From Caldithrix abyssi (GTDB lineage Bacteria > Calditrichota > Calditrichia > Calditrichales > Calditrichaceae), in contig DRQG01000140.1 of NCBI GenBank assembly GCA_011369465.1, forward strand, positions 1-50,780: DNA of 50,780 nt, written 5' to 3'. The notes beneath the pieces are model-generated. The model saw nothing but the letters and a program-made list of their open reading frames with translations. It had not been told where the DNA came from and did not search any database. Each line of letters starts with the position of its first letter. The first letter of the stretch is position 1. The position numbers were made by a program, and so were the translations under genes. Below are positions 1,792 through 50,660 of this stretch, one piece after another.

Positions 1792-1939
1792 TAAAAGTTG
1801 AGCAATTATTACTCAGTTATTCAAACAGATTCTTATCTTAGATATTTAATCCGGTTTGTATTTCCTTTTAGGGTATAGTTTGGCATATATTTTGAAGATA
1901 GGTTTTGTGGCGTAAACGAACGGATAAACAGGACTCAAA

Positions 1940-3211: not shown

Positions 3212-3244
3212 ATACGTTCCCTCCGATTTTCTTTACTATGCCAA

Positions 3245-4777: not shown

Positions 4778-4791
4778 TTATTACAGAAAGA

Positions 4792-5982: not shown

Positions 5983-6040
5983 TCCTAAGCTGAATAGATT
6001 AAGGAACGCATAGTTCAAGGAAAATTAACATTTTAAACCA

Positions 6041-7072: not shown

Positions 7073-8234
7073 TGAAACGGTAAAACATCTGCTTTTGCCG
7101 TTGATCGACCGCTTACAGGATAACGGGTTTACCGTGGAAACCGTCTGTTCGCGTGGTCGCTACAGCGATCCGTTACGTCGGCAGGGCTATGTAATCCATA
7201 ATGTGTCTGTTCCCCGTTCCCTATCTCTCTGGGCCATCCTGAAAAATATCCGCGCATTATACCGGCTTATGCGTACAAATCAATATGATATCATTCATGT
7301 ACATGCTCCTGTTTCTGCGTTTACGGGCCGAATAGCGGCCAAATTATATGGGAAGGCCGTAATTATTTATACGGTTCACGGGTTCTATTTTCACGAAAAT
7401 ATGTCTCGTCTTAAATATCATTTGTTTTATACCATCGAGAAAATCCTGGCTTACTGTTGCACCCATATCATGTTTTTCCAGAGTGAAGAGGATTACAAAT
7501 TAGCCAAAGAAAAAAAATTCTTACGCGGCCAAAATCTTTTTTATATCGGTAACGGTGTAGATGTGCACGTGCGGTTTAATCCGGCTTCCGTTTCAGCGGT
7601 AGAAGTGAACAGATTGCGCAGTGAACTTGGCCTGGAACCGGAATACATTGTAGTTACTTTTATAGGCCGTTTGGTATATGAAAAAGGAGTAATGGATTTA
7701 CTAAGAGCTTTTACAGCAATCGACATGAATAACGCAATTTTGTTGGTTGTGGGATCGGCCTTAGCTACGGATCGCGATCGAATACCGGAAGAAGAATTAA
7801 AACCCTATCGAAATCATCCGCGCATTATTTTTACCGGCTTTCGGGAGGACATTTCGCAGATATTGGCTCTTACGGATATTTTTTGTATGCCCTCTTACCG
7901 CGAAGGTAAACCTCGTTCAGTTTTAGAAGCGATGGCCATGAATTGTGCCATTATAGCCGGCAATATACGGGGCTGCCGCGAAGAGGTGATTCCCGGCCGG
8001 AACGGCTTCTTATTTGACATTAAAAATGTTGAAGACTTAAGCGACAAACTGATTTCATTACTTAGTAATATTCCTCAACTTAAAATCTTTAAGAAGAACT
8101 CTCATACTATTGCCCGTGCCGTTTATGATGAAGAAACGGTTCTTAACAAGCAAATGGAAATTTATGAACGACTTCATTCCAAAGGTATAAAAGATTTGGA
8201 GTTCAATATTTCACCTACCAGGATTCATAGCTGA
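7044..8234 (+). CDS. Glycosyltransferase family 1 (GT4-type).
   Basis: C-terminal E-x7-E signature EGKPRSVLEAMAMNCAIIAGNIRGCREEVIPGRNGFLF at about 7903-8016. Overlaps the upstream ORF by 29 nt, so the start may lie further downstream. Confidence 0.8.
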   Translation: MKVLQITSVDETVKHLLLPLIDRLQDNGFTVETVCSRGRYSDPLRRQGYVIHNVSVPRSLSLWAILKNIRALYRLMRTNQYDIIHVHAPVSAFTGRIAAKLYGKAVIIYTVHGFYFHENMSRLKYHLFYTIEKILAYCCTHIMFFQSEEDYKLAKEKKFLRGQNLFYIGNGVDVHVRFNPASVSAVEVNRLRSELGLEPEYIVVTFIGRLVYEKGVMDLLRAFTAIDMNNAILLVVGSALATDRDRIPEEELKPYRNHPRIIFTGFREDISQILALTDIFCMPSYREGKPRSVLEAMAMNCAIIAGNIRGCREEVIPGRNGFLFDIKNVEDLSDKLISLLSNIPQLKIFKKNSHTIARAVYDEETVLNKQMEIYERLHSKGIKDLEFNISPTRIHS

Positions 8235-8244
8235 TAGCTTAACT

Positions 8245-8898
8245 ATGTACAAAAAAATCATATCACAGCGAATTAAGATTGTGTTGGACTTTTGTCTGGC
8301 ATTGATTAGCCTGATACTTTTATCTCCGCTTTTTGTCATCATTTCTCTGGTAATAAAACTGGATAATCCGGGAAAAGTTATTTTTAAACAGGCGCGCGCC
8401 GGAAAAAACGGTAAACTGTTTTATATATATAAATTCCGGACTATGGTAGAGAATGCCGAAAACATGGGCCTGGGTTATGGCATTGCAAAAAATGATCCCC
8501 GTATAACCCGCGTGGGCCGGTTTCTGCGTAAAACAAGCCTGGATGAACTCCCCCAGCTGTTTAATGTGTTAAAAGGAGAGATGAGTTTTGTCGGCCCGAG
8601 ACCCGGTTTGCCTTATCAGGTAGAGCGTTATTCGGCTAAGCAGCATCGACGTTTACTGGTTAAACCGGGTATTACCGGACTGGCTCAGGTAGAAGGACGG
8701 GGGCTGATTCCCTGGTCAAAACGAATCGAGTATGACCTATGGTATATCGATCATTGGTCCCTTTGGCTGGATTTAAAAATCATGCTCAGGACGGTTAAAA
8801 ACATTATTCTTTCCAAAGGATATACCGAAGAACAGACTCCGGATATTATCGAAGATTTTGAAACATCATCACCACAAAACAAAGAGCGTTATGTTTAA
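8245..8898 (+). CDS. Small bacterial sugar transferase, the undecaprenyl-phosphate sugar-1-phosphate transferase that initiates the glycan (PglC/WbaP C-terminal type).
   Basis: Single N-terminal transmembrane helix. Diagnostic [21 protein letters not shown] motif at about 8536-8598. Confidence 0.85.
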
Positions 8899-9595
8899 AC
8901 GATTTAACGACCTGACGGAAGATGATATAAATTGTGATTTGCAAATACATACAAATCGTACCGACGGCCAGGCCGGCATTGAGGAAATCGTAAATCGGGC
9001 ACGGCAGATCGGATTAAAAAGAATTGCCTTCACCGAACATGTCCGTAAAGATACCGACTGGTTTAACGAGTTTGCAGATGAGATTGAAGAGGTACGGCGC
9101 AGGACCGGCGGAATCGAAATATATATCGGATGCGAAACCAAGATACTCAATGTACACGGAACGTTGGATGTGAGCGAGCGCATACTCGATCGCTGTGAGA
9201 TCATTTTGGGTAGTGTGCATCGTTTCCCGGATGGAGCAGGCGGCTATCTGGATTTTACATGGATTACCGAAGATGATTTTTCCCGTATGGAGTTTGAATT
9301 GGCCAGCGCTCTGCTACTTTATGCTCCCATCGATGTACTGGCGCATCCGGGAGGCATGTACGCCCGTCATCATGGAAACTTTCCGCAAAACCTGCTGGCC
9401 GAACTGCTGGAACTGAGTAAAAAACGCAATGTTGCCGTGGAACTGAACGCGTCGTATCTGAAAGATATTAAAACCGTCCTTCCGGTTTACCGCGAAATAA
9501 ATCCTTATGTTTCTATCGGATCGGATGTGCACCGTCTGGAGGAATTGGGACTGTGTCGTGATTCACTGCGTTTACTTGGAGTGGGCCGATCATGA
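8891..9595 (+). CDS. PHP-domain metal-dependent phosphoesterase, possibly the CpsB/YwqE-type phosphotyrosine phosphatase partnering the BY-kinase.
   Basis: CDLQIHTNRTDG and FTEHV His/Asp metal-binding motifs of the PHP fold. The likely true start is ATG 8891, overlapping the upstream stop as ATGTTTAA. The ORF track lists Met 8858. Confidence 0.6.
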   Translation: MFKRFNDLTEDDINCDLQIHTNRTDGQAGIEEIVNRARQIGLKRIAFTEHVRKDTDWFNEFADEIEEVRRRTGGIEIYIGCETKILNVHGTLDVSERILDRCEIILGSVHRFPDGAGGYLDFTWITEDDFSRMEFELASALLLYAPIDVLAHPGGMYARHHGNFPQNLLAELLELSKKRNVAVELNASYLKDIKTVLPVYREINPYVSIGSDVHRLEELGLCRDSLRLLGVGRS

Positions 9596-10644
9596 AAGTA
9601 TTTGTCACCGGTGCAGGCGCCCTTTTAGGACAGGGCATTATCAAAAGCTTGTGCCTTGCCGAAACAAAATATACCATAATTGCGGCTGATCCGAATCCGC
9701 ATGCGGTTGGTCTGTATTGGGCCGATAAAGCCTATCTAATTCCGATGGCCGACAGCGAAGAGTATTTAGAGCGCATCTGGTCGATCCTTAAAGCGGAAAA
9801 ACCGGAAGTCATTCTCATCGGTACGGACGTTGAGCTGCTTATCTTTGCCGAAAATAAAGATTTTATAGAAAATAATACCGGATCCCATGTTATTGTAAGT
9901 CCGCCGCAGGTTATCCGCATCGCCGATGATAAATGGCTCACCTATAAATTTTTAAAAGAAAATGGTTTCCCATACCCGCAATCGGTATTGGCGGATGAAG
10001 CGGATCGCCTGGTCCAAAGCTGCGGTTTCCCGTTGATTGTTAAACCCCGCCGGGGAGCGCGATCTGCCGGTGTACGCACTGTTCGGAACGAACATGAACT
10101 ACGTGAGGCTCTGCAGGCCACATCGGAACCGATTATTCAGGAATGTGTAGCCGACGCCCATCACGAATATACCAGCGGTGTACTCACTCTGGGTACAGAA
10201 ATACGATCCGTCGTTACTATGCGACGCGATCTGCGGGACGGCAACACCTACCGCGCCTATGTTCTACCCGGATTTGAGGCCAATGATATGCTAGCCGAAA
10301 TTGCTAAAAGACTGCGTGGTTTTGGACCGCTCAATCTGCAATTCCGCATGGATGACGGTCAGCCCAAAGTGTTCGAAATAAACGCCCGCTTTTCCGGTAC
10401 AACCCCACTGCGGGCCTATGCCGGTTTTAATGAAGTGGATTTCATGATACGTTACGTTGTAAAGGGAGAAAGAATTCCTCCGCCCAAATTATCCCCGAAG
10501 ATACTGCTGCGTTATCTGGATGAAATCATAATAGAACCGGGTAGTTATGAACATCTGGTTTATAAAAAACAGGGCGAAAATCTCTCCTTCACGAAGCCGG
10601 GGCATCATTTATCCCGAGGCAATAATGACGATGAAAGAATTTAA
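9592..10644 (+). CDS. ATP-grasp domain protein, a carboxylate-amine ligase.
   Basis: Rossmann-like N-terminus MKVFVTGAGALLGQGII. Central ATP-grasp region PLIVKPRRGARSAGVR...EYTSGVL. C-terminal FEINARFSGT resembles the ATP-grasp catalytic loop. Start codon overlaps the upstream stop. Confidence 0.65.
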   Translation: MKVFVTGAGALLGQGIIKSLCLAETKYTIIAADPNPHAVGLYWADKAYLIPMADSEEYLERIWSILKAEKPEVILIGTDVELLIFAENKDFIENNTGSHVIVSPPQVIRIADDKWLTYKFLKENGFPYPQSVLADEADRLVQSCGFPLIVKPRRGARSAGVRTVRNEHELREALQATSEPIIQECVADAHHEYTSGVLTLGTEIRSVVTMRRDLRDGNTYRAYVLPGFEANDMLAEIAKRLRGFGPLNLQFRMDDGQPKVFEINARFSGTTPLRAYAGFNEVDFMIRYVVKGERIPPPKLSPKILLRYLDEIIIEPGSYEHLVYKKQGENLSFTKPGHHLSRGNNDDERI

Positions 10645-11749
10645 AATACCTCTCTCTCAACCGGATATTACCGATTTGGAACGCCGTTATGTAATGGAAG
10701 TGCTGCAAACACCCAACCTGAGTCTTGGCCCGAAACTACCGGAGTTCGAGAAAAAAGTGAGCGATTATGTGGGAACCCGATTTGCCGTTGCGGTGAACAG
10801 TGGCACCAGTGCCTTACATTGCTGTATTAAAAGTTTTGGGATCGGCCCGGGCGACGAAGTGATTACGTCGCCGTTCAGTTTTATTGCCACATCCAATGCC
10901 GCTCTGTTCGAAGGCGCGAAACCGGTTTTTGTCGATATCGATCCGGATACCTACAACATCGATTTCCGGCAAATTGAAGAAAAAATAACCGAACGCACCA
11001 AAGCCATTATTCCCGTTCATGTGTTTGGCCTTCCTGCGGAGATGGATGCTATAAACAAAATTGCTAAGAAATACAATCTTCGTGTCCTCGAAGACGCAGC
11101 AGAAGCTATTGGCGCAGAATACAAAAAGCGTAAGGCTGGCAGCCTGGGTGACTGTGCCGTATTTGCTTTTTATCCTAATAAACAGATAACCACCGGCGAA
11201 GGCGGCATAATTGTAACCGATAATGAATCTTTGGCTGCACTATGTCGCAGTTTGCGCAATCAGGGTCGTGGTGATACCTCCGGCTGGTTACAGCATCAAC
11301 GTCTCGGTTATAATTACCGCCTATCCGATATCAATTGTGCTCTGGGTATCGCCCAGATGGAACGTCTGTCCGAAATATTGGACAAAAGAACGCGCGTAGC
11401 CCAATGGTATCTGGAACAATTACATGATGTGCCCGAATTAACCACCCAGCAAATCCCGGCCAATTGTAAAAAAAGTTGGTTTGTATTTGTGGTAGCCCTT
11501 TCGCCTTTATACAGTAAAAAAAGCCGTGATGAAATATTATCCCATTTAAGAAAGAAAGGTATCGCATGTAGTAATTACTTTAGTCCCATTCATCTGCAAC
11601 CCTTTATGGCCGCCCGGTTCGGTTATAAAGAAGGCGATTTTCCGGTAACGGAAAGTTTGTCCAAACGAACCATTGCCCTTCCATTCTTTGCCAATCTAAG
11701 CAAAGAAAACGTTCGATATGTTACAGACGTTTTGAAAAACAGTCTGTGA
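10625..11749 (+). CDS. DegT/DnrJ/EryC1/StrS-family PLP-dependent nucleotide-sugar aminotransferase (PglE/WbpE-like).
   Basis: FAFYPNKQITTGEGGII contains the PLP lysine in its characteristic context. GTSALH motif also present. Probable start MTMKEF at 10625; the ORF track lists an earlier Met at 10547, inside the previous gene. Confidence 0.88.
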   Translation: MTMKEFKIPLSQPDITDLERRYVMEVLQTPNLSLGPKLPEFEKKVSDYVGTRFAVAVNSGTSALHCCIKSFGIGPGDEVITSPFSFIATSNAALFEGAKPVFVDIDPDTYNIDFRQIEEKITERTKAIIPVHVFGLPAEMDAINKIAKKYNLRVLEDAAEAIGAEYKKRKAGSLGDCAVFAFYPNKQITTGEGGIIVTDNESLAALCRSLRNQGRGDTSGWLQHQRLGYNYRLSDINCALGIAQMERLSEILDKRTRVAQWYLEQLHDVPELTTQQIPANCKKSWFVFVVALSPLYSKKSRDEILSHLRKKGIACSNYFSPIHLQPFMAARFGYKEGDFPVTESLSKRTIALPFFANLSKENVRYVTDVLKNSL

Positions 11750-11814
11750 GAACTCTCCTTCTTAGCGCTTCTGTTTAATCATCATAAGTATTAAGTCCTG
11801 CCATTTTAACCTTT

Positions 11815-13746
11815 GTGAGGTGTGTTATGTCCAGAGTAAGTGTGTTTTTTGAGAATTCTCTGGAGAGAATTCAAAACAAATCCGTAATTATTTTTATTGA
11901 TTTTCAGCTCATCTTTCTCTCTTACATTATTTCTTTCTTCCTGCGCTTTGATTTTATTATTCCATCTCAATTTCTGAAAATGATGTTTTTTACCCTGCCT
12001 GTTGTGCTTGGTATTAAAATATTTACCTACATTTATTTCAATATCCACCGGATAATCTGGAAATTTACCGGTATCAGCGATCTGATTAAAATAATTAAAG
12101 TAAGCTCCTTCAATAATGCACTGTTTGCGCTTATTCTGTTCGCGCTAATCGGGTTTAAAGGATATCCGCGTTCCGTTATTCTTATTGACTGGTTTTTAAC
12201 TATTATGTTTCTCGGAGGCAGCCGTATAGCGTGTCGGCATTTGGCTACCCTTATTAAGGATTCAAATAACCACCGTAACCCCTCTACGACTAAAAAGTGT
12301 ATCATACTCGGTTCAGGTGAAGCAGCCGAAGGACTTATACGCGAGATGGTTTCGGGAAAGATTGATTATATTCCACTGGCCATCCTGGATGATGATCCTA
12401 AAAAGTGGGGCTTGTATTTGCATAATGTAAAGATATATGGTCCTATTAAAGACATCGGGGTACTGTTGGACAAATTTAGAATAGATGAAATCGTTATTGC
12501 CATACCCTCGGCGACACGAGCTCAAATGGCTCAAATTCTAAAGCATTGTAAACCTTGCATTGCTAAAAATATAAAATGCAAAACCGTACCCGGCATCAAC
12601 GAGATCTTATCCGGACTGCATTCCCTTACAAAACTGAGAGAAGTACGTCTGGAAGATCTGATGAATCGGGAACTGGTTATGATTAATCAGGTGGAATTGC
12701 GCAGAGAATTCGCCCATAAAACGGTTCTGGTTACCGGTGCGGCCGGTTCAATCGGTTCCGAGCTGGCCAGACAGATTTACTCCTATAATATTACCAAATT
12801 AATCCTACTCGATCGTAACGAAAACAATTTATTATATCTGGAAAAAGAACTCGAAACCCGATATCCGGAGATACGTTACGAGACCGTGGTTACGGATATT
12901 ACAGACAAAGCCATGGTTGAGAGGGTATTTAAACAATATCGTCCGCAATACATTTTTCATGCTGCGGCATACAAGCATGTACCATATATGGAAAAATTTC
13001 CGGCCGAAGCGGTTAAAAACAATGTGTACGGTACCTACGTATTAGCCGGTCTGGCGGAAAAACACCATGCGACAAAATTTGTCCTTATTTCTACGGATAA
13101 AGCGGTATGCCCAACCAGCGTCATGGGGTGTACGAAACGGGTTGCCGAAATGAGCTTATTACATTTCTTTAAAGATTCCGATACCAGTTTTATAATTGTT
13201 CGTTTTGGCAATGTATTGGGCAGCAATGGCAGTGTCATACCTCTTTTTAAACAACAGATTGAAAAAGGCGGTCCTCTTACTGTAACGCATCCGGAAATGA
13301 GGCGTTATTTTATGACCATCCCGGAAGCGGTAAGCCTGACCTTAAAAGCCGGTTCAATTGGCGAACATGGCGATATTATGATACTGGACATGGGTGAACA
13401 AATTCCGATAATTCAAATTGCCGAAAACCTTATTCGACTATCCGGATATACTCCTTACAAAGATATCCCCATACAGATAAGCGGTATACGGCCCGGCGAA
13501 AAATTGTATGAGGAGTTATGGTATAAAGATGAAAATCCCATTCCCACCAATCATCCCAAAATATTTAAAGCCACACAATTTTTTCATAAGAACGGCCTCG
13601 ATGTAGAAGCCTATAACACGGTCATTCAATACAGCCTTTCAGGAGAACAAAACGATAGAATATTAAAATTGCTACGGCATCTGGTGCCGGACTTTCGTAC
13701 GCCAAAAATCGGCAGAATAACTAAGAAAACCTATATTTACAATTAA
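11815..13746 (+). CDS. Membrane-anchored UDP-GlcNAc 4,6-dehydratase (PglF/CapD/WbpM family polysaccharide biosynthesis protein).
   Basis: Four N-terminal transmembrane helices. NAD-binding VLVTGAAGSIGSEL at about 12724-12765. Catalytic AAAYKHVPYME (YxxxK) at about 12961-12993. Confidence 0.88.
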   Translation: MRCVMSRVSVFFENSLERIQNKSVIIFIDFQLIFLSYIISFFLRFDFIIPSQFLKMMFFTLPVVLGIKIFTYIYFNIHRIIWKFTGISDLIKIIKVSSFNNALFALILFALIGFKGYPRSVILIDWFLTIMFLGGSRIACRHLATLIKDSNNHRNPSTTKKCIILGSGEAAEGLIREMVSGKIDYIPLAILDDDPKKWGLYLHNVKIYGPIKDIGVLLDKFRIDEIVIAIPSATRAQMAQILKHCKPCIAKNIKCKTVPGINEILSGLHSLTKLREVRLEDLMNRELVMINQVELRREFAHKTVLVTGAAGSIGSELARQIYSYNITKLILLDRNENNLLYLEKELETRYPEIRYETVVTDITDKAMVERVFKQYRPQYIFHAAAYKHVPYMEKFPAEAVKNNVYGTYVLAGLAEKHHATKFVLISTDKAVCPTSVMGCTKRVAEMSLLHFFKDSDTSFIIVRFGNVLGSNGSVIPLFKQQIEKGGPLTVTHPEMRRYFMTIPEAVSLTLKAGSIGEHGDIMILDMGEQIPIIQIAENLIRLSGYTPYKDIPIQISGIRPGEKLYEELWYKDENPIPTNHPKIFKATQFFHKNGLDVEAYNTVIQYSLSGEQNDRILKLLRHLVPDFRTPKIGRITKKTYIYN

Positions 13747-13908
13747 TCGTCTATTTTTCTTTAGCGTCAATTTAAGAGGGAAAAAATAGCTGAATTCTTT
13801 GTTTTTTAGATGGCTAACATCATTAATATAAATTCCTTCCTTTATTAGCTTTATCATCCTTCCGGCCTTCCTCTATAATAACAATGGAGAAAACGCTCCA
13901 AACACAGA

Positions 13909-20322: not shown

Positions 20323-21273
20323 ATGCTGACAGCTATTATTATTTTCGTTATCCTCTTAGGGTTCATTTATGAATACCGCCTGAGAAAGCCGGATCAGCTC
20401 GTTTTATACGAGTCGCGCGGCGTTGTTAAACAGCGGAAGGGAAAGTTCTATCCCCGTCATTTCAGCCTGGCCATCCCGGCTACCATTCATTCTTCCGCGG
20501 TTAAAGTCGAAGCAGAGGCCAAAGGGAAATTACCGATCCTTGTGCAGGTGGCCCTGGCCTGCGCCGCCTCGCCCTCGCAGCTAAGCGAATTGGTGCGCGT
20601 AGGTGGATGGGACAAAAACGCGGTACCCAAAGCCGCCGCCGAACTGGAAATCCTCATTACAAGTTATGTGAAAGAATTTGCCCAGCAGTTTGAAATAGAA
20701 GAATTAAGCGCCGAAAAACTAACCCAGCATCTGAACAAAAAACTGGGACTAACCGTACACGCTCTGGGGCTGGACATCATCAGTTGTCAGGTGCAAGCGG
20801 TAGATCCGCTGGATGAAGAGATAGCCGAAGCCATGCGCAAACAGGAAGCGGCGCGTATTATGGAGCAAACCGAACAGGCCAATCAAAAAGCGCGGGTAGC
20901 CGCGGCGCAAGCCCGTATCGAAGCGGACGACAAAATCGCACAAACGGAGCACCAACTAGCCTTAAAGAAACTGGCTCTGGAAGAAAAACAGCAGCAAAAA
21001 GAGGCTCTTCTGCAAAAGCAGCGGGTGGAAGAAGAAATCAAACGCCGCAAAATGCAGATGGAAGTGGAAAAGAAAGAGGTGGAGTTGCTTAAGGAAAATC
21101 CCGAGCTGCTGATTCTCAGCCCGCAAATAGCGCGTCTGGCCGAAGCCAGTCAAAGTATGCCCAATGCCAAAACGGTGGTTTCCCTTTCTCCCGAACAGGC
21201 CGCGCAAAGCTCGCAAATCATATCCGTCATTCAGGAGTTGCTGCAGAAAATGGTGGAGAAAAAGAAGGAGTAG
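20323..21273 (+). CDS. Membrane-anchored coiled-coil protein, possibly SPFH/flotillin-like.
   Basis: N-terminal transmembrane helix [17 protein letters not shown]-terminal roughly 120 aa rich in Q/E/K/A heptads ([56 protein letters not shown]), as seen in flotillin. Confidence 0.4.
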
Positions 21274-21279
21274 GATATA

Positions 21280-21750
21280 GTGTGTGGAGTAATGGGGAGC
21301 CGGATGCCGGGAATTTGAAATTAGAAATTGGAAACTGGGAACTGGGAATTGGGAACTGGATGCTTGATGCTGGAAATTGGATACTGGTAGCTGGTAATGA
21401 AATGAAAAATTAAGAATGACTCTGTGATCTCGGCGTTCTCTGCGGTTGGATAAAACAGGGGCAAAGGCACAAAGGCACAAAGTACCGCAAGATTTATCTT
21501 GCGCTCAGGGTAGGCAGACAACCCTTCGACCCCGACAAGCCGGGGCAGGCAGAGCTCAGGGAACGGAGGCTGATAACCGATAGCCAAGAATTTCGAACGC
21601 CGATTAACGACTTAAGAACTGACAACTAACAACTGAAAACTGATAACTGATAACTGACAACTGAAAACTGAAAACTAATTACCGATAGCCAACAGCTAAC
21701 AGCCTATAGCCAAAAGCAGATGACCGACAGCTAATAACTGAAAACTAAAA
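21280..21750 (+). repeat. Composite intergenic repeat element, copy B (full length, three modules).
   Basis: Module 1: GGAAYTGG-type tandem run GGAAACTGGGAACTGGGAATTGGGAACTGGATGCTTGATGCTGG at about 21312-21400. Module 2: conserved core GTTGGATAAAACAGGGGCAAAGGCACAAAG..GCAAGATTTATCTTGCGCTCAGGGTAGGCAGACAACCCTTCGAC at about 21440-21530. Module 3: A-rich AACTGA(C/A/T)A and GATAGCCAACAGCTAACAGCC words at about 21570-21750. Confidence 0.75.
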
Positions 21751-21754
21751 ATCT

Positions 21755-24700
21755 ATGCCTCAAAACAATAACAACATAAACCCGCTGGAGTATTTTCGCT
21801 TACGACCGATCAAGGCGGCCAAGGTTTCCGAAATCAGCGAAGCGACGGCTTCCTCGCCTCTGTCGCCGGCCGAACGGGTTAATTTCCACATCGGACACCC
21901 GCTGCAGGAAGAAGAGCTGAGCGCGTTTTATTTTCGTCTAACCGTTTCCGCAGCGGAAGAAGAGGAACACAGCGAAGCAGGCCGGGCTGATTTTCTGCGC
22001 CGTTGCATTGCCCAATGCGCGCCGTATATGCCGCGCGGCGGGTATGCCGCAGCCGACGGACATCCTCTGCTGGAACATCTGCAAAACTGGCTTAAAGGAC
22101 AGAGCGAGCCGCTGGAATACGAATCCGGCCTTCGTCGGGAAATTATTTTCGGCAGCGGCGGCGTTACCGAAAATTTGCGCGTATTGTTTACCGCCCTGCA
22201 GCGATTCCTGCGCTACCAACCGGCGCAGATTTGCCTTTTCCAAAGCGAGCTACCGGAATTTTTACGTAACTTTCCTCCTTTACAGTTTTTATACTATGAT
22301 GAAGCCTCGTCTCTGCCGGATTATCTGCAAAACTTACTAAACGCCCATCCGCAGCGGCCCCTGTTTTTAATCTATCAAACCGTGCTGCCGGAAGCGGTGC
22401 GGCGTGAACTGCGGGAAATCAGTCTGCAAAAGCCCTTGTTTTTTATCGAGCTGAATGACGCGCCCAATCATTTGTCCATGGCCCGTGAGGCGCGCATGCA
22501 GGAAAGGGTACTACGTTTTCTGACGCCCAAAATATTCCACCCGGCGCTGCAGCATCTGTCCACCATATTCATTTTGGGCAGCCACGATTATCTTAAAGTG
22601 CTGGAAACCGTACACTTCGAACTGAAAGGCACGCCGGCCGCCGCCGAAATAGAATGGCTGACTTATGCGCTGGACAACCATATCCTGCCTCCGGAAAATG
22701 AGTCCTCATCTTTGGAGGCTCCGTCCGACCGGCACCGGCATACCAGCCCGTTCATTTCCACCGGTGAGCGGCTCGTGCGCAAATTCGGGGGATTGGTCAG
22801 CGGACAACCGCTTTTACTGGAAACGGCCGCAACCGTGGTAGAGCAATACAGTCAGCGGCAGCAAGAGCGTTTTTCCTCTTTGTATCGTTTCATAAATCGT
22901 TTACCGTTTGTGGAAAGGGAACAGGGTGAAAACCTCGACCATATTCCGGCCTTAAAAATACTGGACACCCTGCTGAAACAACCGCAGGATAAAGCCTTTG
23001 CCGCATTACTGCAGGAAAACTTCCTGTCCGCCTTCCTGCGTCATCACCCGGAATACGAGATGGAACACTGTGCGGTGGTCAGCGGATCATCGCGTACGGC
23101 GCTGAGCCTTTTGGGAAAACATTGCGGAGTCAGCGAGGTGATCAGTCCGGATTTGGGCTGGACGTACGAACACTGTTTCCCGCGGGTCAGCTTTGTTCCG
23201 CTTAAAAGCGATCTGTCGCTGGACAGCGAGGCTATCCTGCAAACCGTGCAGCGCAAAAGGGAAGCGGACGCCCGCTGGACCGAGTACGGCGCGGTGATAC
23301 TCAACAATCCCCACAACGCCAGCGGCAGTGTTTTCGACAGTAGCCGGATGAGCGAGCTGCTGCGCCGGCTGCTGAAAGCCGGTGTGCGGGTCATCGATGA
23401 TCTGTCTTATCAGAATGTAAACCCCGGCGAAACCTGGCGGGAGATTCCCACGCTCAAGCAGCTCACCGCCGAATTGCGGCGCAACGGTTACCTTTCCGAA
23501 GAACAGGCGGCGCGCCTGATTACCGTTCATTCGCTGTCCAAAACGGACGCCTTTGCCGGAGGTCGTCTGGCCGTTATCGAACTTCCCGAAGAGGATTTGC
23601 GGGATAGCTACCGGAAAATCACCGCGCATATCTACCCTAATATCATGGCCGTTTTGCTGGCCTATCTGTTTTACCGCAATCCGCCGGAAAAACTGAACGC
23701 TTACTGGCATTTGCGCAACCGCATTTTTGACCGCCGCATGCAAGCTATCGAGCAGGCCTTGCAGGAACTGCCCGCCAACCGTAATCCCTACGGCATCAAA
23801 GTGAAACGTCCCTCCGGAAGCATGTATCCGCGCATGGTCATCGAACGCCTGCCCGAGGGGCTTTCGCTGGACTGGCTTTCTTCGGGGCTGGCGGTACAGG
23901 GTATCGGGCTGGTGCCGCTGTCCACGTTTTCGCGCACGGCGGAAGGGTACGAGCTGGGACGTAAATCCTTCCGCTTGACGCTGGGCGGCGCTTCCGGCGC
24001 AGCGGAGCTGAAGAACAAAACCCGCCGCGTGATCATCGACCTGAACCGTATGCTGGCCCGCCAGGATGAAGGATACAACCGCAAACGCTTTGCCGTGCGC
24101 ACAACCATCGACGCCGGCCGGGGCTTCTTCCCCGGCGCCTGGGAAGCCTGGAAAGGCATCGATGAGGAAATCCGCCGTTGGGCCGTGCAGGCGCTGGACT
24201 TTTATCTGAAAAAACAACCCGCAGGCAGCGAACGGCATAAATTATTAACCGAATTCGGGAAAGAGTACCTGCCGCATCGATTGGCCGTGTACCGCCAGCG
24301 GCTGCAGGATCGGCTGCATATTGGCGGCCGGTTAATCGAAGCCGGACGAGGGCCGGGCAAACCGGAACTGCTGGAGGTTCTGGAAAGAGAATTTTACAAA
24401 GAGACGCTGCCGGAACGGGGCGAACGGTTCCGCCGCCGTTTATTTGACCGCACGGTGCACCCCACGCAGATGTATGCTCTGCAAAGCGAAGCGGTCTTTA
24501 ACGGGATAATAGATCGCTTGCTTACGGACGGAGATATTTCGCGAGAGATATTACGCCGCGCCGGAAAAACCCTGGCCGAAGAGTATCTGGGCCGCAACGT
24601 ACCCGTCAGTTCAGTGCAGGAGGCCGAGGAACTGCTGCTTGATCTCAACGACGTCATCGCCGCCGAAGAATTTGCCCGCTGGAACGGTGATTTCCGCTTC

Positions 24701-27316
24701 CGACCCTTCCTTTCCTTTTGGGGCGATTGGGACGGCAGTACGCGGCCTTCCGGGCAGGGGCACCGGCTGGTGGCGGCGGTGGTGATGGAAAATGTAAAAC
24801 GCCAGACCAACATACTCAATACGCTGCTGCAAATCGACGGGACGCTGCCGCTGGACGCCGCTCTGCGCCGGGAGATGCTGGCTTTGCCCGCGCACAACAA
24901 ACGTTTCTGGAATCTGCTGAACCGTATTACCCAATTGACCAATCAATTGGAAAAGCGCTACCGCAGCGTTCTGCCTTTCGAAACGGATTACGGCGCCTGG
25001 CGTAAATGGGCTGTGCGCGTTCATCTGCGCCGCGATCCCGTTACCGTACTCTGGCAGCATAACGACCGATTGGAAAAAAAGATGCGCGAGCTGCGCGCCC
25101 GTCGCCGCGAGATGCTGGAATATTATTTTGCGCTCAATAAACGGCTGCGCAAAACTCTGCACGGGCTTTTGCCGCACATCGAAACGCATCTGCACCATAG
25201 GGAAATCGCCCTGAGCGCGGGCGGCTTTCGCAGTTTGCTGGCCCGTTTTGTGCTCACCCCGCGTATTCATCAAAAAATGATTTTGGCCAAAGACGCCTTT
25301 CCCATCAACACCACAGCGTATAATTTAACCGAGTTGAATGAGATTGCCGGCAAATACGGCAATCCGGGCGTGGTGCTGGCGCTGCAAATCAGTATGTCCA
25401 CACAGGCGGAAGCGTTGATCGCTTTGGACCGCAAACTGAACGCCGAGCGCGAACGAACCCTGCGCCGCGAACCGGAGGCTGACATTCCGTCCATTTGGCT
25501 GGTGCCCTTATTCGAAGGCGCCGACGAGGTAAAAACAATAGACGACTATCTGAACAAGCTGTGGGATTACGCCGTGCAGAGCCGCCGCCTGAACCGGAAG
25601 CCGGTGGAACGGCTGTCCGAACTGCTGTGTGAGTTGTTCATCGCCGGGTCGGATTTAAGCCAGCAGGTCGGCCAGTTGAACGGTGCGGCGTTGTACAGAC
25701 AAGCCAAAATGAAAATCATCCGCTGGCTGGCCCGGCGCGATTTAACCGATCAGGTGCGCATTAAATTGGGCTGCGGCGAACCGATGCAGCGACAGGGCGG
25801 CTACTACGACGCGCTGGCAGGGGCGCCCGCTTTTGAAACAAACCCAAGCGCCGCGCGCCGCCTCAAAGAGTATTTGCCTCCTTCCGCGCAAAAAAGCGCC
25901 GAATTTGCCCGCAGCCCCCTGCGCGGCATTCTGGCCGACGGCGACCTGCGCACCTATCAGAGCAACCTGATGGAGCATTTACGCCGCCTGGGTATGGAAG
26001 AACGCAGCCAGATTTTTTATCACGTTATTCAGACGCAAAAGAACTACCACAGCGAACTGGTTAAGGCGGCCGAACCGCTGTTGGATACCCGTCTGCCCTA
26101 CACGGAACGCGGGTTGGGAAATTTGAAAATGCTTATCGGACTGAACGAAGATGAGGCGTTCGGCCGTTTTCTGGAACTGTACACCCGCAATTTCCGGCAG
26201 ATTCTTTACGGCAGCGAGGAAGATGTGGTGGGCATTCATATCGTGTCCTATTTTATTTCCCGCGCCATGCCGGCCCTGCGCGACCGTCCCACGGTTCGGC
26301 CTTCCGCTACGTCCGGGGAAGTGCGCGGCCAGCAGATTATTCAACGTATCGCCAAAACCCTGCCGCTGGCCAATCACGGCAGTCTGCTGCGGGCCATCGG
26401 TCACAACCGCGCGCAAACCTTCGTTCTGGGCGTCAACCAGCTTACCACCGGCCTGTTCCGCGCCCTGCAGGAATTCAGCAACGAAGAAAGCGGCTCTTCC
26501 CGGATCCACGAACGCGTTTTGCCGCAGTTAGCCGTTTACGATATCCTGCGCGCTCTGCGGCTGTATCACGATCCCGAACTACGCTACGCGGCCAAAATGC
26601 AGGAAGCTTTTTCTCCCGGAAATTCATCCTTTTTGCTGTTGCGCGAAGATGTGGACAGTATTCCCTCGTTTTTATACGGCCTGCGCCGTGAGCTGATCCG
26701 CCGACAGGGATTGGACCCGGCCGATTTTTTTGAAGGCGGACGGTTTAAGCCGCAGCTCTTGCCCGCCCTGCGTCCCGATCTGGCCGTTCTGATGCAGGAC
26801 GACCTGTTTAACACCGACGCGGCCGTTTTCTTTTCAGCCATCGGCGGGAAATGGGATGATACCTGGGAAAAAGAGATACGCCGCCTGCTGAATATCCCCA
26901 GACGCATCCGCGAATGGCGGCAAAAAATATGGACATTGATTGAAGAACCGATATTCCAGCAGACGGCCAGTTTCAGAGAGCTGGCCCGGGCGATTCATTT
27001 CTTTAGCGGGAACAAGGACGCGGCCGAGCTGCCCTTTTCGGCCAGTCCGAGCGAGGTATTGCGTATCGGCAGCAGCGTTACCCAGGCACTGCGCGGCACT
27101 GTAGATGACAGCATGCGCCAGTTTCTGCTTTCCGCGGTACAATTTTTAACCCAACTGCCGGGCAAACTGCCCGAAGTGCCCATCGACATCATCCGCGCCC
27201 TGCGCGACGTGGAACGCATCATTCAAATTGAAGAGCAGGCCCTATCCGCCGCCCAGCAGGACGAGCTGCGCTTCTATCTGCTGCAAATGGCCCGGTTGAC
27301 GGGGGAGAACGGATAG
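21755..27316 (+). CDS. Giant 1853-aa multidomain protein: unknown N-terminal region, a class-I/II PLP aminotransferase-like domain, and a C-terminal divergent phosphoenolpyruvate carboxylase (PEPC)-like module.
   Basis: Aminotransferase motifs: NNPHNASG (23301-23324), VIDDLSY, and HSLSKTDAFAGGRLA with the PLP lysine (23529-23573). Collinear PEPC motifs with near-native spacing: TVHPTQ ~ PEPC TAHPTE (about 24451-24468); FWGDWDGS ~ WMGGDRDGN (24716-24739); LVPLFEGADEV ~ VPLFETLDDL (25499-25531); FIAGSDLSQQVG ~ MIGYSDSAKDAG (25637-25672); KLGCGEPMQRQGG ~ FHGRGGSIGRGG (25763-25801). Uninterrupted 5.56-kb ORF at about 60% GC. Confidence 0.6.
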   Translation: MPQNNNNINPLEYFRLRPIKAAKVSEISEATASSPLSPAERVNFHIGHPLQEEELSAFYFRLTVSAAEEEEHSEAGRADFLRRCIAQCAPYMPRGGYAAADGHPLLEHLQNWLKGQSEPLEYESGLRREIIFGSGGVTENLRVLFTALQRFLRYQPAQICLFQSELPEFLRNFPPLQFLYYDEASSLPDYLQNLLNAHPQRPLFLIYQTVLPEAVRRELREISLQKPLFFIELNDAPNHLSMAREARMQERVLRFLTPKIFHPALQHLSTIFILGSHDYLKVLETVHFELKGTPAAAEIEWLTYALDNHILPPENESSSLEAPSDRHRHTSPFISTGERLVRKFGGLVSGQPLLLETAATVVEQYSQRQQERFSSLYRFINRLPFVEREQGENLDHIPALKILDTLLKQPQDKAFAALLQENFLSAFLRHHPEYEMEHCAVVSGSSRTALSLLGKHCGVSEVISPDLGWTYEHCFPRVSFVPLKSDLSLDSEAILQTVQRKREADARWTEYGAVILNNPHNASGSVFDSSRMSELLRRLLKAGVRVIDDLSYQNVNPGETWREIPTLKQLTAELRRNGYLSEEQAARLITVHSLSKTDAFAGGRLAVIELPEEDLRDSYRKITAHIYPNIMAVLLAYLFYRNPPEKLNAYWHLRNRIFDRRMQAIEQALQELPANRNPYGIKVKRPSGSMYPRMVIERLPEGLSLDWLSSGLAVQGIGLVPLSTFSRTAEGYELGRKSFRLTLGGASGAAELKNKTRRVIIDLNRMLARQDEGYNRKRFAVRTTIDAGRGFFPGAWEAWKGIDEEIRRWAVQALDFYLKKQPAGSERHKLLTEFGKEYLPHRLAVYRQRLQDRLHIGGRLIEAGRGPGKPELLEVLEREFYKETLPERGERFRRRLFDRTVHPTQMYALQSEAVFNGIIDRLLTDGDISREILRRAGKTLAEEYLGRNVPVSSVQEAEELLLDLNDVIAAEEFARWNGDFRFRPFLSFWGDWDGSTRPSGQGHRLVAAVVMENVKRQTNILNTLLQIDGTLPLDAALRREMLALPAHNKRFWNLLNRITQLTNQLEKRYRSVLPFETDYGAWRKWAVRVHLRRDPVTVLWQHNDRLEKKMRELRARRREMLEYYFALNKRLRKTLHGLLPHIETHLHHREIALSAGGFRSLLARFVLTPRIHQKMILAKDAFPINTTAYNLTELNEIAGKYGNPGVVLALQISMSTQAEALIALDRKLNAERERTLRREPEADIPSIWLVPLFEGADEVKTIDDYLNKLWDYAVQSRRLNRKPVERLSELLCELFIAGSDLSQQVGQLNGAALYRQAKMKIIRWLARRDLTDQVRIKLGCGEPMQRQGGYYDALAGAPAFETNPSAARRLKEYLPPSAQKSAEFARSPLRGILADGDLRTYQSNLMEHLRRLGMEERSQIFYHVIQTQKNYHSELVKAAEPLLDTRLPYTERGLGNLKMLIGLNEDEAFGRFLELYTRNFRQILYGSEEDVVGIHIVSYFISRAMPALRDRPTVRPSATSGEVRGQQIIQRIAKTLPLANHGSLLRAIGHNRAQTFVLGVNQLTTGLFRALQEFSNEESGSSRIHERVLPQLAVYDILRALRLYHDPELRYAAKMQEAFSPGNSSFLLLREDVDSIPSFLYGLRRELIRRQGLDPADFFEGGRFKPQLLPALRPDLAVLMQDDLFNTDAAVFFSAIGGKWDDTWEKEIRRLLNIPRRIREWRQKIWTLIEEPIFQQTASFRELARAIHFFSGNKDAAELPFSASPSEVLRIGSSVTQALRGTVDDSMRQFLLSAVQFLTQLPGKLPEVPIDIIRALRDVERIIQIEEQALSAAQQDELRFYLLQMARLTGENG

Positions 27317-27317
27317 G

Positions 27318-27580
27318 ATAAGTGAGAAGTTGTGGGAGTGGAGTGATGGAGTTTTGGATTACTGGGTGGGGGGAGAGCGTAGGAATTAGGAACTTGGAAC
27401 TGGATGCTGGTTTCTGGAAACTGGAAATTGGGAACTTGGAACTGGGAAACAATTACGAATCATTCAATTATTTGTCTGCCGTAGGCACGGTGAATTACGA
27501 ATTAAGGGTGATAGCTTACAGCCAATAGCCAACAGCTAACAGCCCAACAACTCAATAACTTAATAACTGACAACTTTTGT
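27318..27580 (+). repeat. Composite intergenic repeat element, copy C (modules 1 and 3).
   Basis: GGAGTGGAGTGATGGAGTTTTGGATT...GGAACTTGGAACTGGATGCTGG...GGAAATTGGGAACTTGGAACTGGG followed by CCAATAGCCAACAGCTAACAGCC...AATAACTGACAAC. Confidence 0.7.
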
Positions 27581-27930
27581 CGCGAAGCAAAGAACCCTCC
27601 GGAAGAATCAATGAAATCGTACTGGTTTAAAGAAGAATGGCCCGGATTATTTTATAATCGGTTGTTGTTCTAATTATAGTTTGTCCATTGCAAAGAAAAT
27701 CCAAACGGTCTATATTATGGTAAACTATGCTATAAATCAAATCTTAGGCTGTATGAAAGCATGGGTATAATATGGAATAGTTATATAAGGTGGTATAATT
27801 GGTATTTTTATTGGCAATGAAAAAAACCGCAATAAACAGCTGATTTTGACCGGCGAAAAATACAACTTAGCAAGAGAAATTGAGACGTTTGTTTAAAAAT
27901 TTTTTTAATTAGAATTCAGGAATAAAACAA

Positions 27931-28281
27931 GTGAAATTATTTTTAATCACCATCGGATTGCTTAATGGAAGCTATATGCTCATAGACGGTGTCTATGTGC
28001 TGGTTAAGGGGAAATACATCGGCCCGGAAAAACCCGGACCGTGGGCCGGTATTTTTGCGGGTCTGGGAATAGACGTCTTTAAACTCGGCCCTTTGTTTGT
28101 GCTGTTCGGATTGCTGTGGCTGATCTTTGTGTACGGGGTGCAAACTTCACAAAATTGGGTTTATGTTTTCGGCCTGATTGTGTCCGCTGCTACCCTATGG
28201 TACCTGCCGTTTGGTACGTTCATTTCCATCATATCTATTGTTCTGCTGCTTTTTTTCAGGCAGAATTTGGGTATCCAATAA
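27931..28281 (+). CDS. Small hypothetical membrane protein (116 aa, about 3 transmembrane helices) with a GTG start.
   Basis: Hydrophobic segments LFLITIGLLNGSYMLIDGVYVLV, LFVLFGLLWLIFVYGV and VFGLIVSAATLWYLPFGTFISIISIVLLLFF. Preceded by a 340-bp AT-rich spacer with TATAAT-like boxes. Confidence 0.45.
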   Translation: MKLFLITIGLLNGSYMLIDGVYVLVKGKYIGPEKPGPWAGIFAGLGIDVFKLGPLFVLFGLLWLIFVYGVQTSQNWVYVFGLIVSAATLWYLPFGTFISIISIVLLLFFRQNLGIQ

Positions 28282-28323: not shown

Positions 28324-29634
28324 ATGACAAAGAACAAAAAACTCAGCCTTGCGGAAGTTATTTCCATGGCCGTCGGCACGATGATCGGCGCCAGCATCTT
28401 TTCCATTTTCGGTTTAGGAGCTAAAATTGCCGGAACGGATCTGCCCGAAGCTTTCGTTCTTTCCGGCATTTACGCTTTGGTCGTAGCGTATTCCTACGCC
28501 AGATTGGGCGGAAAAATCATATCCAATGCCGGGCCGATTGCTTTTATTCTAAAAGGAATGGGAGATAGCATTGTCACCGGCGCCCTAAGCATCCTCATGT
28601 GGCTCACCTATGTTATTTCCATAGCGCTTTTTGCCAAAGGTTTTGCCGGCTATTTGCTGCCCTTTATCCGTGTGGAAACAACCCCGCTGGCCTATGCTAT
28701 TGTTGAAATAAGCGTTATTTCCTTTTTTACGGCTTTAAATTTTTTTGGCAGTAAGGCGGTCGGGAAAGCCGAGTTCTATATTGTTCTGATCAAAATATCC
28801 ATTTTATTGGTGTTCATTTTCGGCGGATTTATGACGGTAAACTGGACGACGACCCAGCCGCTTTTGGATGCCATGCATACCAACGGTATGCTAAACGCCT
28901 CCGTGATATTTTTCCTGTCCTATATGGGTTTCGGTCTGATAACCAATGCATCGGAAAATATTAAAAATCCGCAAAAAAATATACCGCGGGCTATCTACAT
29001 CAGTATTTTGTTTGTAATGATGATCTATGTTCTTATTTCTCTGGTTACCATCGGCAATCTGCCCCTGGCGGATATTATTAAGGCGCAGGAAAACGCTCTG
29101 GCCATTGCCGCCAAACCATTTCTGGGACGCTTCGGCTTTATTCTGATTACGATCGGGGCGCTGTTTTCCATTTCCTCAGCCCTCAACGCTTCCCTTTTCG
29201 GCGGAGCCAACATCGCTTATTCATTGGCCAAAGACGGCGAACTACCGGAAGTTTTCGAAAGAAAGGTCTGGTTTAAATCAACTGAGGGTTTGTACATAAC
29301 CGCCGGACTCAGCCTTTCCTTCGCCCTGTTTTTCGACCTGGGCGCCATCGCTTCCATTACCAGTACGGTTTTTACGGTTATTTATATCTTTGTGTTAATA
29401 TCTCATTTTAAATTGCGAAAAGAATACGGCGGCAATACGATACTGCTGATCATTAATCTGATCATTCTCATTGCCGTTTTTATCGCCCTGATGAAGTATC
29501 AATGGAATACGCACAAAAATGCTTTTTACGCCAGCATAGTGACCTTTGCCGCCGCCGCTGTGGTGGAATATGTTTTCAGAAAATTCGCAAAGCGGGATAT
29601 GACCGGCACGAAAATAAGCACCTATCCGGAATAA
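28324..29634 (+). CDS. APC-superfamily amino acid/polyamine permease.
   Basis: 436 aa with 12 predicted transmembrane helices. N-terminal LSLAEVISMAVGTMIGASIFSIFG is the typical APC first helix with a G-rich unwound segment. Confidence 0.8.
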   Translation: MTKNKKLSLAEVISMAVGTMIGASIFSIFGLGAKIAGTDLPEAFVLSGIYALVVAYSYARLGGKIISNAGPIAFILKGMGDSIVTGALSILMWLTYVISIALFAKGFAGYLLPFIRVETTPLAYAIVEISVISFFTALNFFGSKAVGKAEFYIVLIKISILLVFIFGGFMTVNWTTTQPLLDAMHTNGMLNASVIFFLSYMGFGLITNASENIKNPQKNIPRAIYISILFVMMIYVLISLVTIGNLPLADIIKAQENALAIAAKPFLGRFGFILITIGALFSISSALNASLFGGANIAYSLAKDGELPEVFERKVWFKSTEGLYITAGLSLSFALFFDLGAIASITSTVFTVIYIFVLISHFKLRKEYGGNTILLIINLIILIAVFIALMKYQWNTHKNAFYASIVTFAAAAVVEYVFRKFAKRDMTGTKISTYPE

Positions 29635-29789: not shown

Positions 29790-30235
29790 CCGAGTACAGA
29801 GAAGGTGGTGACGGGTGACAGGAATTTGGAAATTAGAAACTCGGAACTGGGAACTGGTTACTTGATGCTGGAAATTTAATGAAAAATGAAGAATAACCCT
29901 GTGTTCCCGGGGAATGCGCTGGTTGGATAAAGCAGGGGCAAAGGCACAAAGTAACGCAAGATTTATCTTGCGCTCAGGGCAGGCAGACAACCCTTCGACA
30001 GGCTCAGGGTTCGTAGGCTGAGCTCTGCCTGTCCCGACAAGTCGGGATCGAAGCCGATGTCCGTTCCCTTCGACCCCGATTTCATCGGAACAGGCAATGC
30101 TCAGGGAACGTAGGCTGAGCTTTGTCGAAGCCGATGGCCGATCCTTCGACTTCGCTCAGGACAAGTAGCTGATAGCCGACAGCTAATCCAATAACCTAAT
30201 AACCTAATAACCAATAACGTAAAGTGGATTCTCGA
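29790..30235 (+). repeat. Composite intergenic repeat element, copy D (three modules).
   Basis: Module 1 at 29822-29880 (GGAAATTAGAAACTCGGAACTGGGAACTGG..GATGCTGGAAAT). Module 2 at 29910-30000 is near-identical to copy B, including the GCAAGATTTATCTTGC hairpin at 29956-29971. Internal GCTCAGGG..CTGAGC hairpins and CCTTCGAC / CGAAGCCGATG words at 29990-30170. Module 3 at 30160-30225 (AATAACCTAATAACC). Confidence 0.75.
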
Positions 30236-50569: not shown

Positions 50570-50660
50570 GAAGGGGAGTTGGATGCGGGGAACTGGGAAT
50601 TGGGAACCGGATGCTGGATGCTTGATGCTGGAAAAAGATAGAAATTAAGAATTATGAATG
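50570..50660 (+). repeat. Composite intergenic repeat element, copy E (module 1, lying upstream of the minus-strand operon).
   Basis: GGGAGTTGGATGCGGGGAACTGGGAATTGGGAACCGGATGCTGGATGCTTGATGCTGGAAA is near-identical to module 1 of copies B and D. Confidence 0.7.

Follow-up and report, generated by a model that had tools for sequence, protein, structure and literature searches.

A widespread three-module protein that joins an aminotransferase to a PEP carboxylase-type module beside an SPFH gene

Can one polypeptide carry both a pyridoxal phosphate (PLP)-dependent aminotransferase and a phosphoenolpyruvate (PEP) carboxylase (PEPC), and if so, what might it do? The question is raised by a very long open reading frame (ORF) in a Caldithrix abyssi metagenome-assembled genome (MAG; GenBank assembly GCA_011369465.1), within a stretch of 50,780 nucleotides of contig DRQG01000140.1 that we analysed as a whole and refer to as the window. 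An earlier note on this DNA had described an unbroken frame of 5.56 kb with the signatures of a class-I aminotransferase and, behind them, landmark motifs of PEPC. The frame is indeed uninterrupted from its ATG start (21755..27316, on the forward strand, as are its modules and motifs and the SPFH gene) and encodes 1853 amino acids (aa), and every motif that had been quoted was located in the translation, in collinear order and at an exact position. Public records (HGY56936.1, UniRef100_A0A7V4U2M7) name the protein 'pyridoxal phosphate-dependent aminotransferase'. Our analysis divides it into three modules, an N-terminal domain that is probably a degenerate PLP half-domain, a central aminotransferase domain and a C-terminal PEPC-type module, and we consider this architecture and the homologies behind it very probable. 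Directly upstream lies a gene for a membrane-anchored SPFH/Band-7 protein.

The PEPC-type module

The C-terminal module (aa ~779-1853, 24089..27313) was delimited by fold, profile comparisons and a family of stand-alone relatives. Its AlphaFold2 (AF2) model (aa 780-1853; predicted local distance difference test, pLDDT, 85.4; predicted template modelling score, pTM, 0.87) resembles PEPC, with a helical N-terminal region, an eight-stranded barrel inside the PEPC-specific helical shell, and an expanded C-terminal third. When this model was searched with Foldseek, the top 36 matches were all PEPC (E 4e-11 to 2e-6) and the next match had E 0.035; the check by predicted structure that had been proposed earlier thus returned PEPC alone at significant values. 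Identity in the structural alignments is about 10-14%, and in the predicted model the module lies nearest to the archaeal type of PEPC.

A second line of evidence comes from what we call the sister family. A phmmer search with the C-terminal module among 1.84e9 proteins found P0254 (942 aa, E 1.1e-14), which belongs to a rare, unannotated group of stand-alone PEPC-like metagenomic proteins of 865-1051 aa in 8 clusters (P0254, P0263 and P0265-P0271; loci L098-L100). P0265, P0267 and P0270 narrowly pass Pfam gathering thresholds, all three for PEPcase_2 and one also for PEPcase, with 28-30 bits (cut-off 25) and 25.2 bits (cut-off 22.4). By hhalign the fused family aligns with the sister family over 762 columns (Prob 99.8, E 4.4e-28), and the sister family with canonical PEPC over 655 columns (Prob 84.8, E 6.6e-6). 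The fused and the sister proteins have the motifs xHPSQ, DFDG, VPLFE, AGSDLS and G-x-G-E-x-P-F-R-Q-G-G in common, whereas the sister proteins have no aminotransferase and no SPFH neighbour, keep the residue equivalent to Lys546 of E. coli PEPC, and end in SPGM rather than GENG. At locus L099 the sister gene is found between nusA/ppa/tig and type-II/IV secretion genes.

Direct sequence comparison counts against this homology. A PEPcase match in Pfam, on which the earlier note had made its reading depend, did not appear: neither PF00311 nor PF14010 matched the window protein at E<=1, and no Pfam or NCBIfam model matched aa ~779-1853. A search of PDB sequences with the hidden Markov model (HMM) of the family found no PEPC. 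When the family was compared by hhalign with E. coli Ppc or with ten aligned PEPC sequences, the E-values were 0.1, 0.049 and 0.014, none of them significant alone. The module is also ~190 residues longer than PEPC, mostly after the RAI motif. The direct alignments still paired ISMS with ISMA, PLFE with PLFE, GSD with YSD and the glycine loops with each other, and a permissive alignment was collinear over E. coli PEPC residues 25-873. Because the fold searches and the bridge through the sister family are positive, we regard the direct-sequence negatives as outweighed, and we conclude from profiles and predicted structure that aa ~779-1853 represent a true, very divergent PEPC homologue. The near-native motif spacing claimed earlier holds in the core, where PLFE and SD are 46 residues apart (37 in E. 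coli PEPC), SD and the loop Arg 46 (44), and GDxDG and PLFE 263 (254); it does not hold in the last third, which is expanded (165 residues against 112 from the loop Arg to the RP loop, and 307 against 170 from RAI to the C-terminus).

Residues were mapped to E. coli PEPC by hhalign alignments, both directly and through the sister family, and invariance was counted over 79 full-length orthologues from several phyla. Nine mapped residues are invariant in 79/79. His902 in TVHPTQ (aa 900-905, 24452..24469) corresponds to His138 (TAHPTE). Glu1254 in LVPLFEG (aa 1249-1255, 25499..25519) and Asp1300 in AGSDLSQQ (25643..25666, with GSDLS at aa 1298-1302) are paired in every comparison with Glu506 and Asp543, which we take to be the Mg2+/Mn2+ ligands. 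Arg1346 lies in GCGEPMQRQGG (aa 1339-1349, 25769..25801), which takes the place of the glycine-rich loop FHGRGGSIGRGG. If the register is taken from the sister family (G-T-G-E-A-P-F-R-Q-G-G), Arg1346 corresponds to Arg587, presumably the catalytic lid-loop arginine; in the direct alignment it is one position off. Arg1511 and Arg1515 in RDRPTVRP (26279..26302, counterpart of the GSRPAKR loop) correspond to Arg699 and Arg703, Arg1546 in LLRAIGH (26384..26404, counterpart of LRAIPW) to Arg713, and Thr1400 and Gln1402 to Thr611 and Gln613; of these we assume that Arg699 and Arg713, together with Arg396, bind PEP, and two arginines presumed to bind phosphate are among the invariant residues. By alignment WGDWDG (aa 989-994, 24719..24736) is the counterpart of the PEPC strand and loop W-x-G-G-D-R-D-G-N-P, and the C-terminal GENG (27302..27313) aligns end-to-end with the PEPC C-terminus RNTG, its last Gly being present in 78/79 orthologues. 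The quoted motifs are invariant in the 79 orthologues, and this conservation, together with the fold and profile comparisons, argues that the motif matches are not coincidental.

Compared with bacterial and plant-type PEPC (PF00311; E. coli Ppc, maize, Arabidopsis), the protein has ~780 N-terminal residues fused on, and we saw no evidence for counterparts of the PEPC allosteric sites in its C-terminal module. Archaeal-type PEPC (PF14010; Clostridium perfringens PepcA, PDB 3ODM) is a stand-alone protein of 55-60 kDa (PMC8100219), whereas the module described here has ~1075 residues, roughly double, and is fused. A 2020 review recognises four types of PEPC, the archaeal-type, the bacterial, the plant-type and the bacterial-type in plants, none of them fused (PMC8100219).

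The aminotransferase domain and the N-terminal module

The aminotransferase signatures proposed for the central part belong to a domain that Pfam confirms: PF00155 matches aa 428-743 with 52.1 bits against a cut-off of 19.7 (E 7.5e-14, profile positions 55-346). We place the domain at aa ~396-778 (22940..24088), based on this match, on Foldseek and on residue conservation. Its motifs are NNPHNASG (aa 517-524), VIDDLSY (aa 546-552) and SLSKTDAFAGGRL (aa 593-605), the last with Lys596 in SLSK (codon 23540..23542), the predicted Schiff-base lysine by motif position and conservation. Against PDB sequences the family profile found the yeast kynurenine aminotransferase Bna3 (1.6e-9) and other class-I enzymes, and phmmer together with the family HMM gave aminotransferases only, no PEPC. 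In an AF2 model of aa 1-800 (pLDDT 86.4, pTM 0.85) the structural neighbours of the domain are LysN, aspartate aminotransferase (AspAT) and ACC synthase at E ~1e-15, with TM-scores of 0.62-0.71 relative to the targets. Asn521, Asp549, Tyr552, Ser593, Ser595, Lys596, Arg604 and Arg740 are invariant in 79/79 orthologues. From what is established for AspAT, and by motif order, we take these eight to be the canonical residues for PLP and the alpha-carboxylate: presumably the Schiff-base lysine, the Asp that contacts the pyridine nitrogen, the Asn and Tyr at O3', one Arg for the phosphate and another for the substrate alpha-carboxylate. Judged by these residues the PLP site appears to be complete.

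The domain preceding it (aa 1-312, 21755..22690) was recognised from the AF2 model, a weak hhalign match and invariant residues. In the model it is of alpha/beta type and has a sheet of seven strands; Pfam gave no match for it at E<=1, and its profile found none among PDB sequences. Aligned with the central domain by hhalign it gives a weak, topologically consistent match (E 0.11), in which REIIFGSGG is paired with VVSGSSRTAL and FFIELNDAPNH with VIDDLSYQNV. A non-conserved residue occupies the position of the PLP lysine, and a segment P-Y91-x-P-R-G-G is invariant in the 79 orthologues. This segment resembles the Tyr-x-x-P-x-x-G segment that presumably enters the partner's active site in dimeric aminotransferases (Tyr70* of AspAT). 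The central domain is without such a segment, its PF00155 match beginning at profile position 55. The secondary structure and the E 0.11 alignment suggest that the N-terminal domain is probably a degenerate fold-type-I PLP half-domain. The two domains would then have degenerated in a complementary way, the first having kept the Tyr without the Lys and the second the Lys without the Tyr segment, a pattern that points to a pseudo-dimer within one chain in which one site would work. Between them lies a variable linker (aa ~313-395, 22691..22939) that is predicted to be disordered, with pLDDT <50 at aa 315-357 and 381-390 and no consensus in the alignments.

Other class-I (fold-type I) aminotransferases, such as AspAT of class Ib, kynurenine and glutamine aminotransferases and LysN, belong to the same PF00155 and have the PLP residues in the same canonical order. 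The protein described here differs from them in that its central domain has no N-terminal Tyr segment of its own, that a probable degenerate copy precedes the domain instead of (only) a homodimer being formed, and that all this is part of an 1853-aa chain.

The first 35 residues (window 21755-21860; consensus DPLxYFxLRPxKAAKVSEISEATAxSP) are near-invariant across phyla and lie outside the recognisable domains. They might serve to dock the protein onto its SPFH partner.

A conserved pair with an SPFH gene and what it might do

The fusion recurs widely. In a search of 5.8 billion proteins we found hundreds of full-length relatives of 1840-1900 aa with 45-51% identity, and one with 75%. A scan with one genome per species found relatives in at least 394 genomes; the 80 best of these relatives are all full length and are labelled as Ignavibacteriota/Melioribacteraceae, Calditrichia, 'Bacteroidetes' MAGs, Acidobacteriota (Bryobacterales, Solibacteraceae) and Chloroflexota (Anaerolineae). 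Mean column identity is 60% over 34 sequences, a very high value given the protein's size and its spread over several phyla. When the C-terminal 1074 residues alone were searched by phmmer, only 211 proteins were found among 1.84 billion representatives, nearly all of them fused full-length proteins or fragments thereof. A separate case is P0150 (994 aa; locus L097, 412-3396), which has 40% identity to the PEPC-type module and also ends in GENG. The 411 bases upstream of it, which are all that is available, contain the end of an unrelated gene and no aminotransferase, a separate aminotransferase elsewhere being possible; this indicates that the PEPC-type module may be able to function on its own.

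The source databases name the relatives only 'PLP-dependent aminotransferase', 'aminotransferase' or 'hypothetical protein', so that no annotated family with an assigned function was met, and our literature searches found no description of an aminotransferase-PEPC fusion or of a link to SPFH. The fusion that the earlier note proposed is supported overall; the N-terminal pseudo-aminotransferase, the SPFH partner and the breadth of the family were not part of it.

The SPFH partner (20323..21273, 316 aa) matches Band_7 (PF01145) at aa 52-190 with 30.5 bits against a cut-off of 23.6, and consists of an N-terminal hydrophobic transmembrane helix, the Band_7/SPFH domain and a long coiled coil. Among 80 related loci, tblastn placed an orthologue (42-57% identity) immediately in front of the giant gene and in the same orientation in 76, and the four loci without a match end at a contig edge; hence every one of the 76 informative loci, drawn from four phyla or more, carries it. 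The SPFH protein has ~315-327 aa across lineages and the other neighbours vary. Since SPFH is found at the same position in 76/80 loci, the functional unit is therefore likely to be a two-gene cassette of SPFH gene and enzyme. Known SPFH operons of the stomatin, flotillin or HflKC type are likewise two-gene units with an N-anchored SPFH protein and a coiled coil, the classical form being SPFH-NfeD. In the pair described here, SPFH is instead joined by a giant, soluble metabolic enzyme and not by an NfeD protein or a protease. Taken together, we classify the family as a third lineage of PEPC type that is fused to both an aminotransferase and a probable pseudo-aminotransferase and has an obligatory SPFH partner. 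A defence system was considered and rejected, as the PADLOC models matched neither the SPFH nor the giant protein, and a functional clue from the other neighbours was likewise rejected, as SPFH alone is conserved.

How could such a protein work? We propose that the two genes are co-transcribed and that the product of the longer one acts as a three-module enzyme. The PEPC-type module would bind PEP and carboxylate the enolate to oxaloacetate, and the central domain would transaminate the oxaloacetate to aspartate. The net reaction would turn PEP, HCO3- and an amino donor (probably glutamate) into aspartate, a 2-oxo acid and Pi. By channelling, the labile oxaloacetate might be kept within the chain, its loss being limited by the fusion, and the first two modules might form the pseudo-dimer with one working site, to which the N-terminal domain would supply its Tyr-x-Pro-x-Gly-Gly segment. 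In published genome analyses of Melioribacter roseus and C. abyssi, PEPC is absent from the enzymes listed, which include pyruvate carboxylase, malic enzyme and PEP carboxykinase; these reconstructions are consistent with a PEP-to-aspartate route without proving it. For the whole reading, including PEP-to-aspartate chemistry in a single chain, we see about an even chance, given that it is built on sequence and models.

Several observations speak against it. As to the aminotransferase half, the best NCBIfam subfamily (equivalog) model reaches 24 bits against a cut-off of 415 and the AspAT equivalog 20.7 bits against 550; the structural neighbours found by Foldseek spread over many specificities. 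As all subfamily models are far below their cut-offs, the substrate of the aminotransferase cannot be read from the sequence. The N-terminal domain enters the argument through secondary structure and the E 0.11 alignment. In the PEPC-type module, Lys546 is replaced by an invariant Gln1303 (the first Gln of AGSDLSQQ), His579 by Leu/Met and Arg581 by Cys/Ser in the lid loop (G-x-G-E-P-M-Q-R-Q-G-G), and Glu612 by Phe/Tyr and Glu615 by Asn, all of these being fixed as changed; the equivalent of Arg396 is, depending on register, the invariant Arg1170 on the same strand or the variable Lys1174. Set against the invariant residues, these fixed substitutions suggest that the site for PEP and metal is retained, as are the two residues with the closest tie to carboxylation, and that the positions for bicarbonate affinity and for the lid have been remodelled.

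Alternatively, the module might bind PEP and catalyse another reaction. PEP might, for example, be hydrolysed to pyruvate, from which the aminotransferase would form alanine, or the enolate might attack some electrophile in place of CO2; the transaminated product would then be something else than oxaloacetate. In canonical PEPC the substituted positions Lys546, Arg581, His579, Glu612 and Glu615 have to do with bicarbonate or carboxyphosphate, and Lys546 (maize Lys606) is, we assume, linked to bicarbonate affinity; its loss is specific to the fused family, since the stand-alone sister family keeps it, and the module is recognised by no PEPC HMM. However, His902 and Arg1346 are invariant, and we take their E. 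coli counterparts His138 and Arg587 to be residues whose mutation abolishes carboxylation and not PEP hydrolysis. The protein has also kept the lid loop and the C-terminal Gly, and Lys546/Lys606 mutants of canonical PEPC reportedly retain activity. We therefore regard a different PEP reaction as unlikely, although it deserves attention. A regulatory role of one half, with the aminotransferase as an amino-acid sensor of PEPC or the PEPC-like part as a PEP-sensing scaffold, seems distinctly improbable to us. Aspartate is a classical PEPC inhibitor, and the N-terminal domain is probably already a degenerate PLP-fold domain. There is also a precedent in the large malic enzymes, whose fused PTA domain is catalytically dead and gives allosteric control (PMC8100219); like the protein described here, they combine an enzyme of the PEP-pyruvate-oxaloacetate node with a large domain from another family. 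In our family, however, the aminotransferase site is fully conserved, and invariance of all PLP-chemistry residues and of the barrel's metal and phosphate ligands in 79/79 orthologues across phyla is a pattern of catalytic selection rather than of ligand sensors.

The giant protein might also be chiefly a structural or client part of an SPFH membrane assembly, kept or controlled at the membrane by the SPFH oligomer, its metabolic domains taking part in a membrane process apart from anaplerosis. The SPFH gene directly upstream in 76/76 informative loci, while other neighbours vary, and the highly conserved first ~35 residues would fit this idea. We consider it very improbable as an explanation in its own right, as the protein sequence contains no transmembrane segment or signal peptide and the conserved catalytic sites argue for enzymology; moreover, being an SPFH client is compatible with the proposed aspartate synthesis and does not exclude it, and PADLOC offers no match for either protein. 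A more far-reaching combination can be formulated as well, namely that a third, unrecognised PEPC-type lineage works as a single-chain 'aspartate synthase' with an intramolecular pseudo-dimeric aminotransferase and is client to an SPFH assembly in the membrane, which would make it a metabolic module organised by SPFH, or else that its remodelled bicarbonate and lid region carries out an undescribed PEP-dependent C-C bond formation. This we put forward tentatively, and with more doubt than belief.

If the PEP-to-aspartate proposal were correct, several consequences would follow. As neither Pfam nor NCBIfam sees the family as PEPC, reconstructions of Ignavibacteriota, Calditrichota, Anaerolineae and Bryobacterales would overlook a possible route of anaplerosis and CO2 fixation, as well as a carbon-nitrogen link leading directly from PEP to aspartate. 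An active enzyme would show the channelling in nature of oxaloacetate, a labile substrate, and would be the one-chain counterpart of the pair of PEPC and AspAT in C4 plants. It would also be the first metabolic enzyme with a strict tie to an SPFH scaffold. Cultured carriers, M. roseus and C. abyssi, make direct tests of the proposal feasible.

Composition, repeats and other features of the window

The gene has a GC content of 56.6% (66% at third codon positions, GC3), and the remaining window has 44.3%. The contrast with the membrane genes described in the earlier note is real, as MurJ and Wzy of the polysaccharide cluster have 35-36%; the value of about 60% given there for the ORF was too high. 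Because pntA, pntB and the GDP-mannose dehydratase gene in the same window reach 53-55%, the 1853-aa gene is the top of a heterogeneous range and not an outlier.

The same intergenic repeat on each side of the gene, which had also been reported, was found. It consists of degenerate tandem heptamers of the AACTGRR type (units AACTGGG, AACTGAA and CAGCCAA), of which two arrays precede the gene (21312-21400, 21560-21750) and two follow it (27377-27455, 27495-27575), and its pattern has 14 matches against 0.59 expected. Further intergenic arrays are present at 29838-29858 (29.84 kb) and 50591-50632 (50.59 kb), every array being on the forward strand, and the repeat is missing from locus L014 of the 75%-identical orthologue; the heptamer is for these reasons a feature of the genome and not part of the 1853-aa gene. 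The arrays are reminiscent of STRR, the short heptamers repeated in tandem in cyanobacteria. An island acquired by horizontal transfer, as high GC and repeats might suggest, was rejected: the 75%-identical orthologue lies in the same synteny (AKR, DJ-1, DUF2147, SPFH) without repeats, and other window genes have 53-55% GC. Intergenic 8-bp tandem repeats, (CAAAGGCA)x2.6 and (AATAACCT)x4.2, occur at 21462-21482 and 30190-30222.

The giant gene is followed by an unusually long AT-rich spacer (27580-27930, ~600-bp). Behind it, at 27931-28281, there is a very hydrophobic 116-aa ORF with a GTG start and no Pfam match, just upstream of the amino-acid permease gene (28324-29634). The remaining genes of the window (radical-SAM, AKR, DJ-1, DUF2147, amino-acid permease, pntAB, 5'-nucleotidase, two-component systems and the polysaccharide cluster) show no conserved linkage to the pair. 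The polysaccharide biosynthesis cluster fills positions 1-13750 and has 35-45% GC, a composition unlike that of the rest of the window. It comprises genes for a GNVR/tyrosine-kinase-like protein, a MurJ/MatE flippase, a Wzy-type polymerase, glycosyltransferases and a sugar transferase, together with a PHP phosphoesterase, an ATP-grasp enzyme, a DegT aminotransferase and a Polysacc_synt_2 dehydratase.

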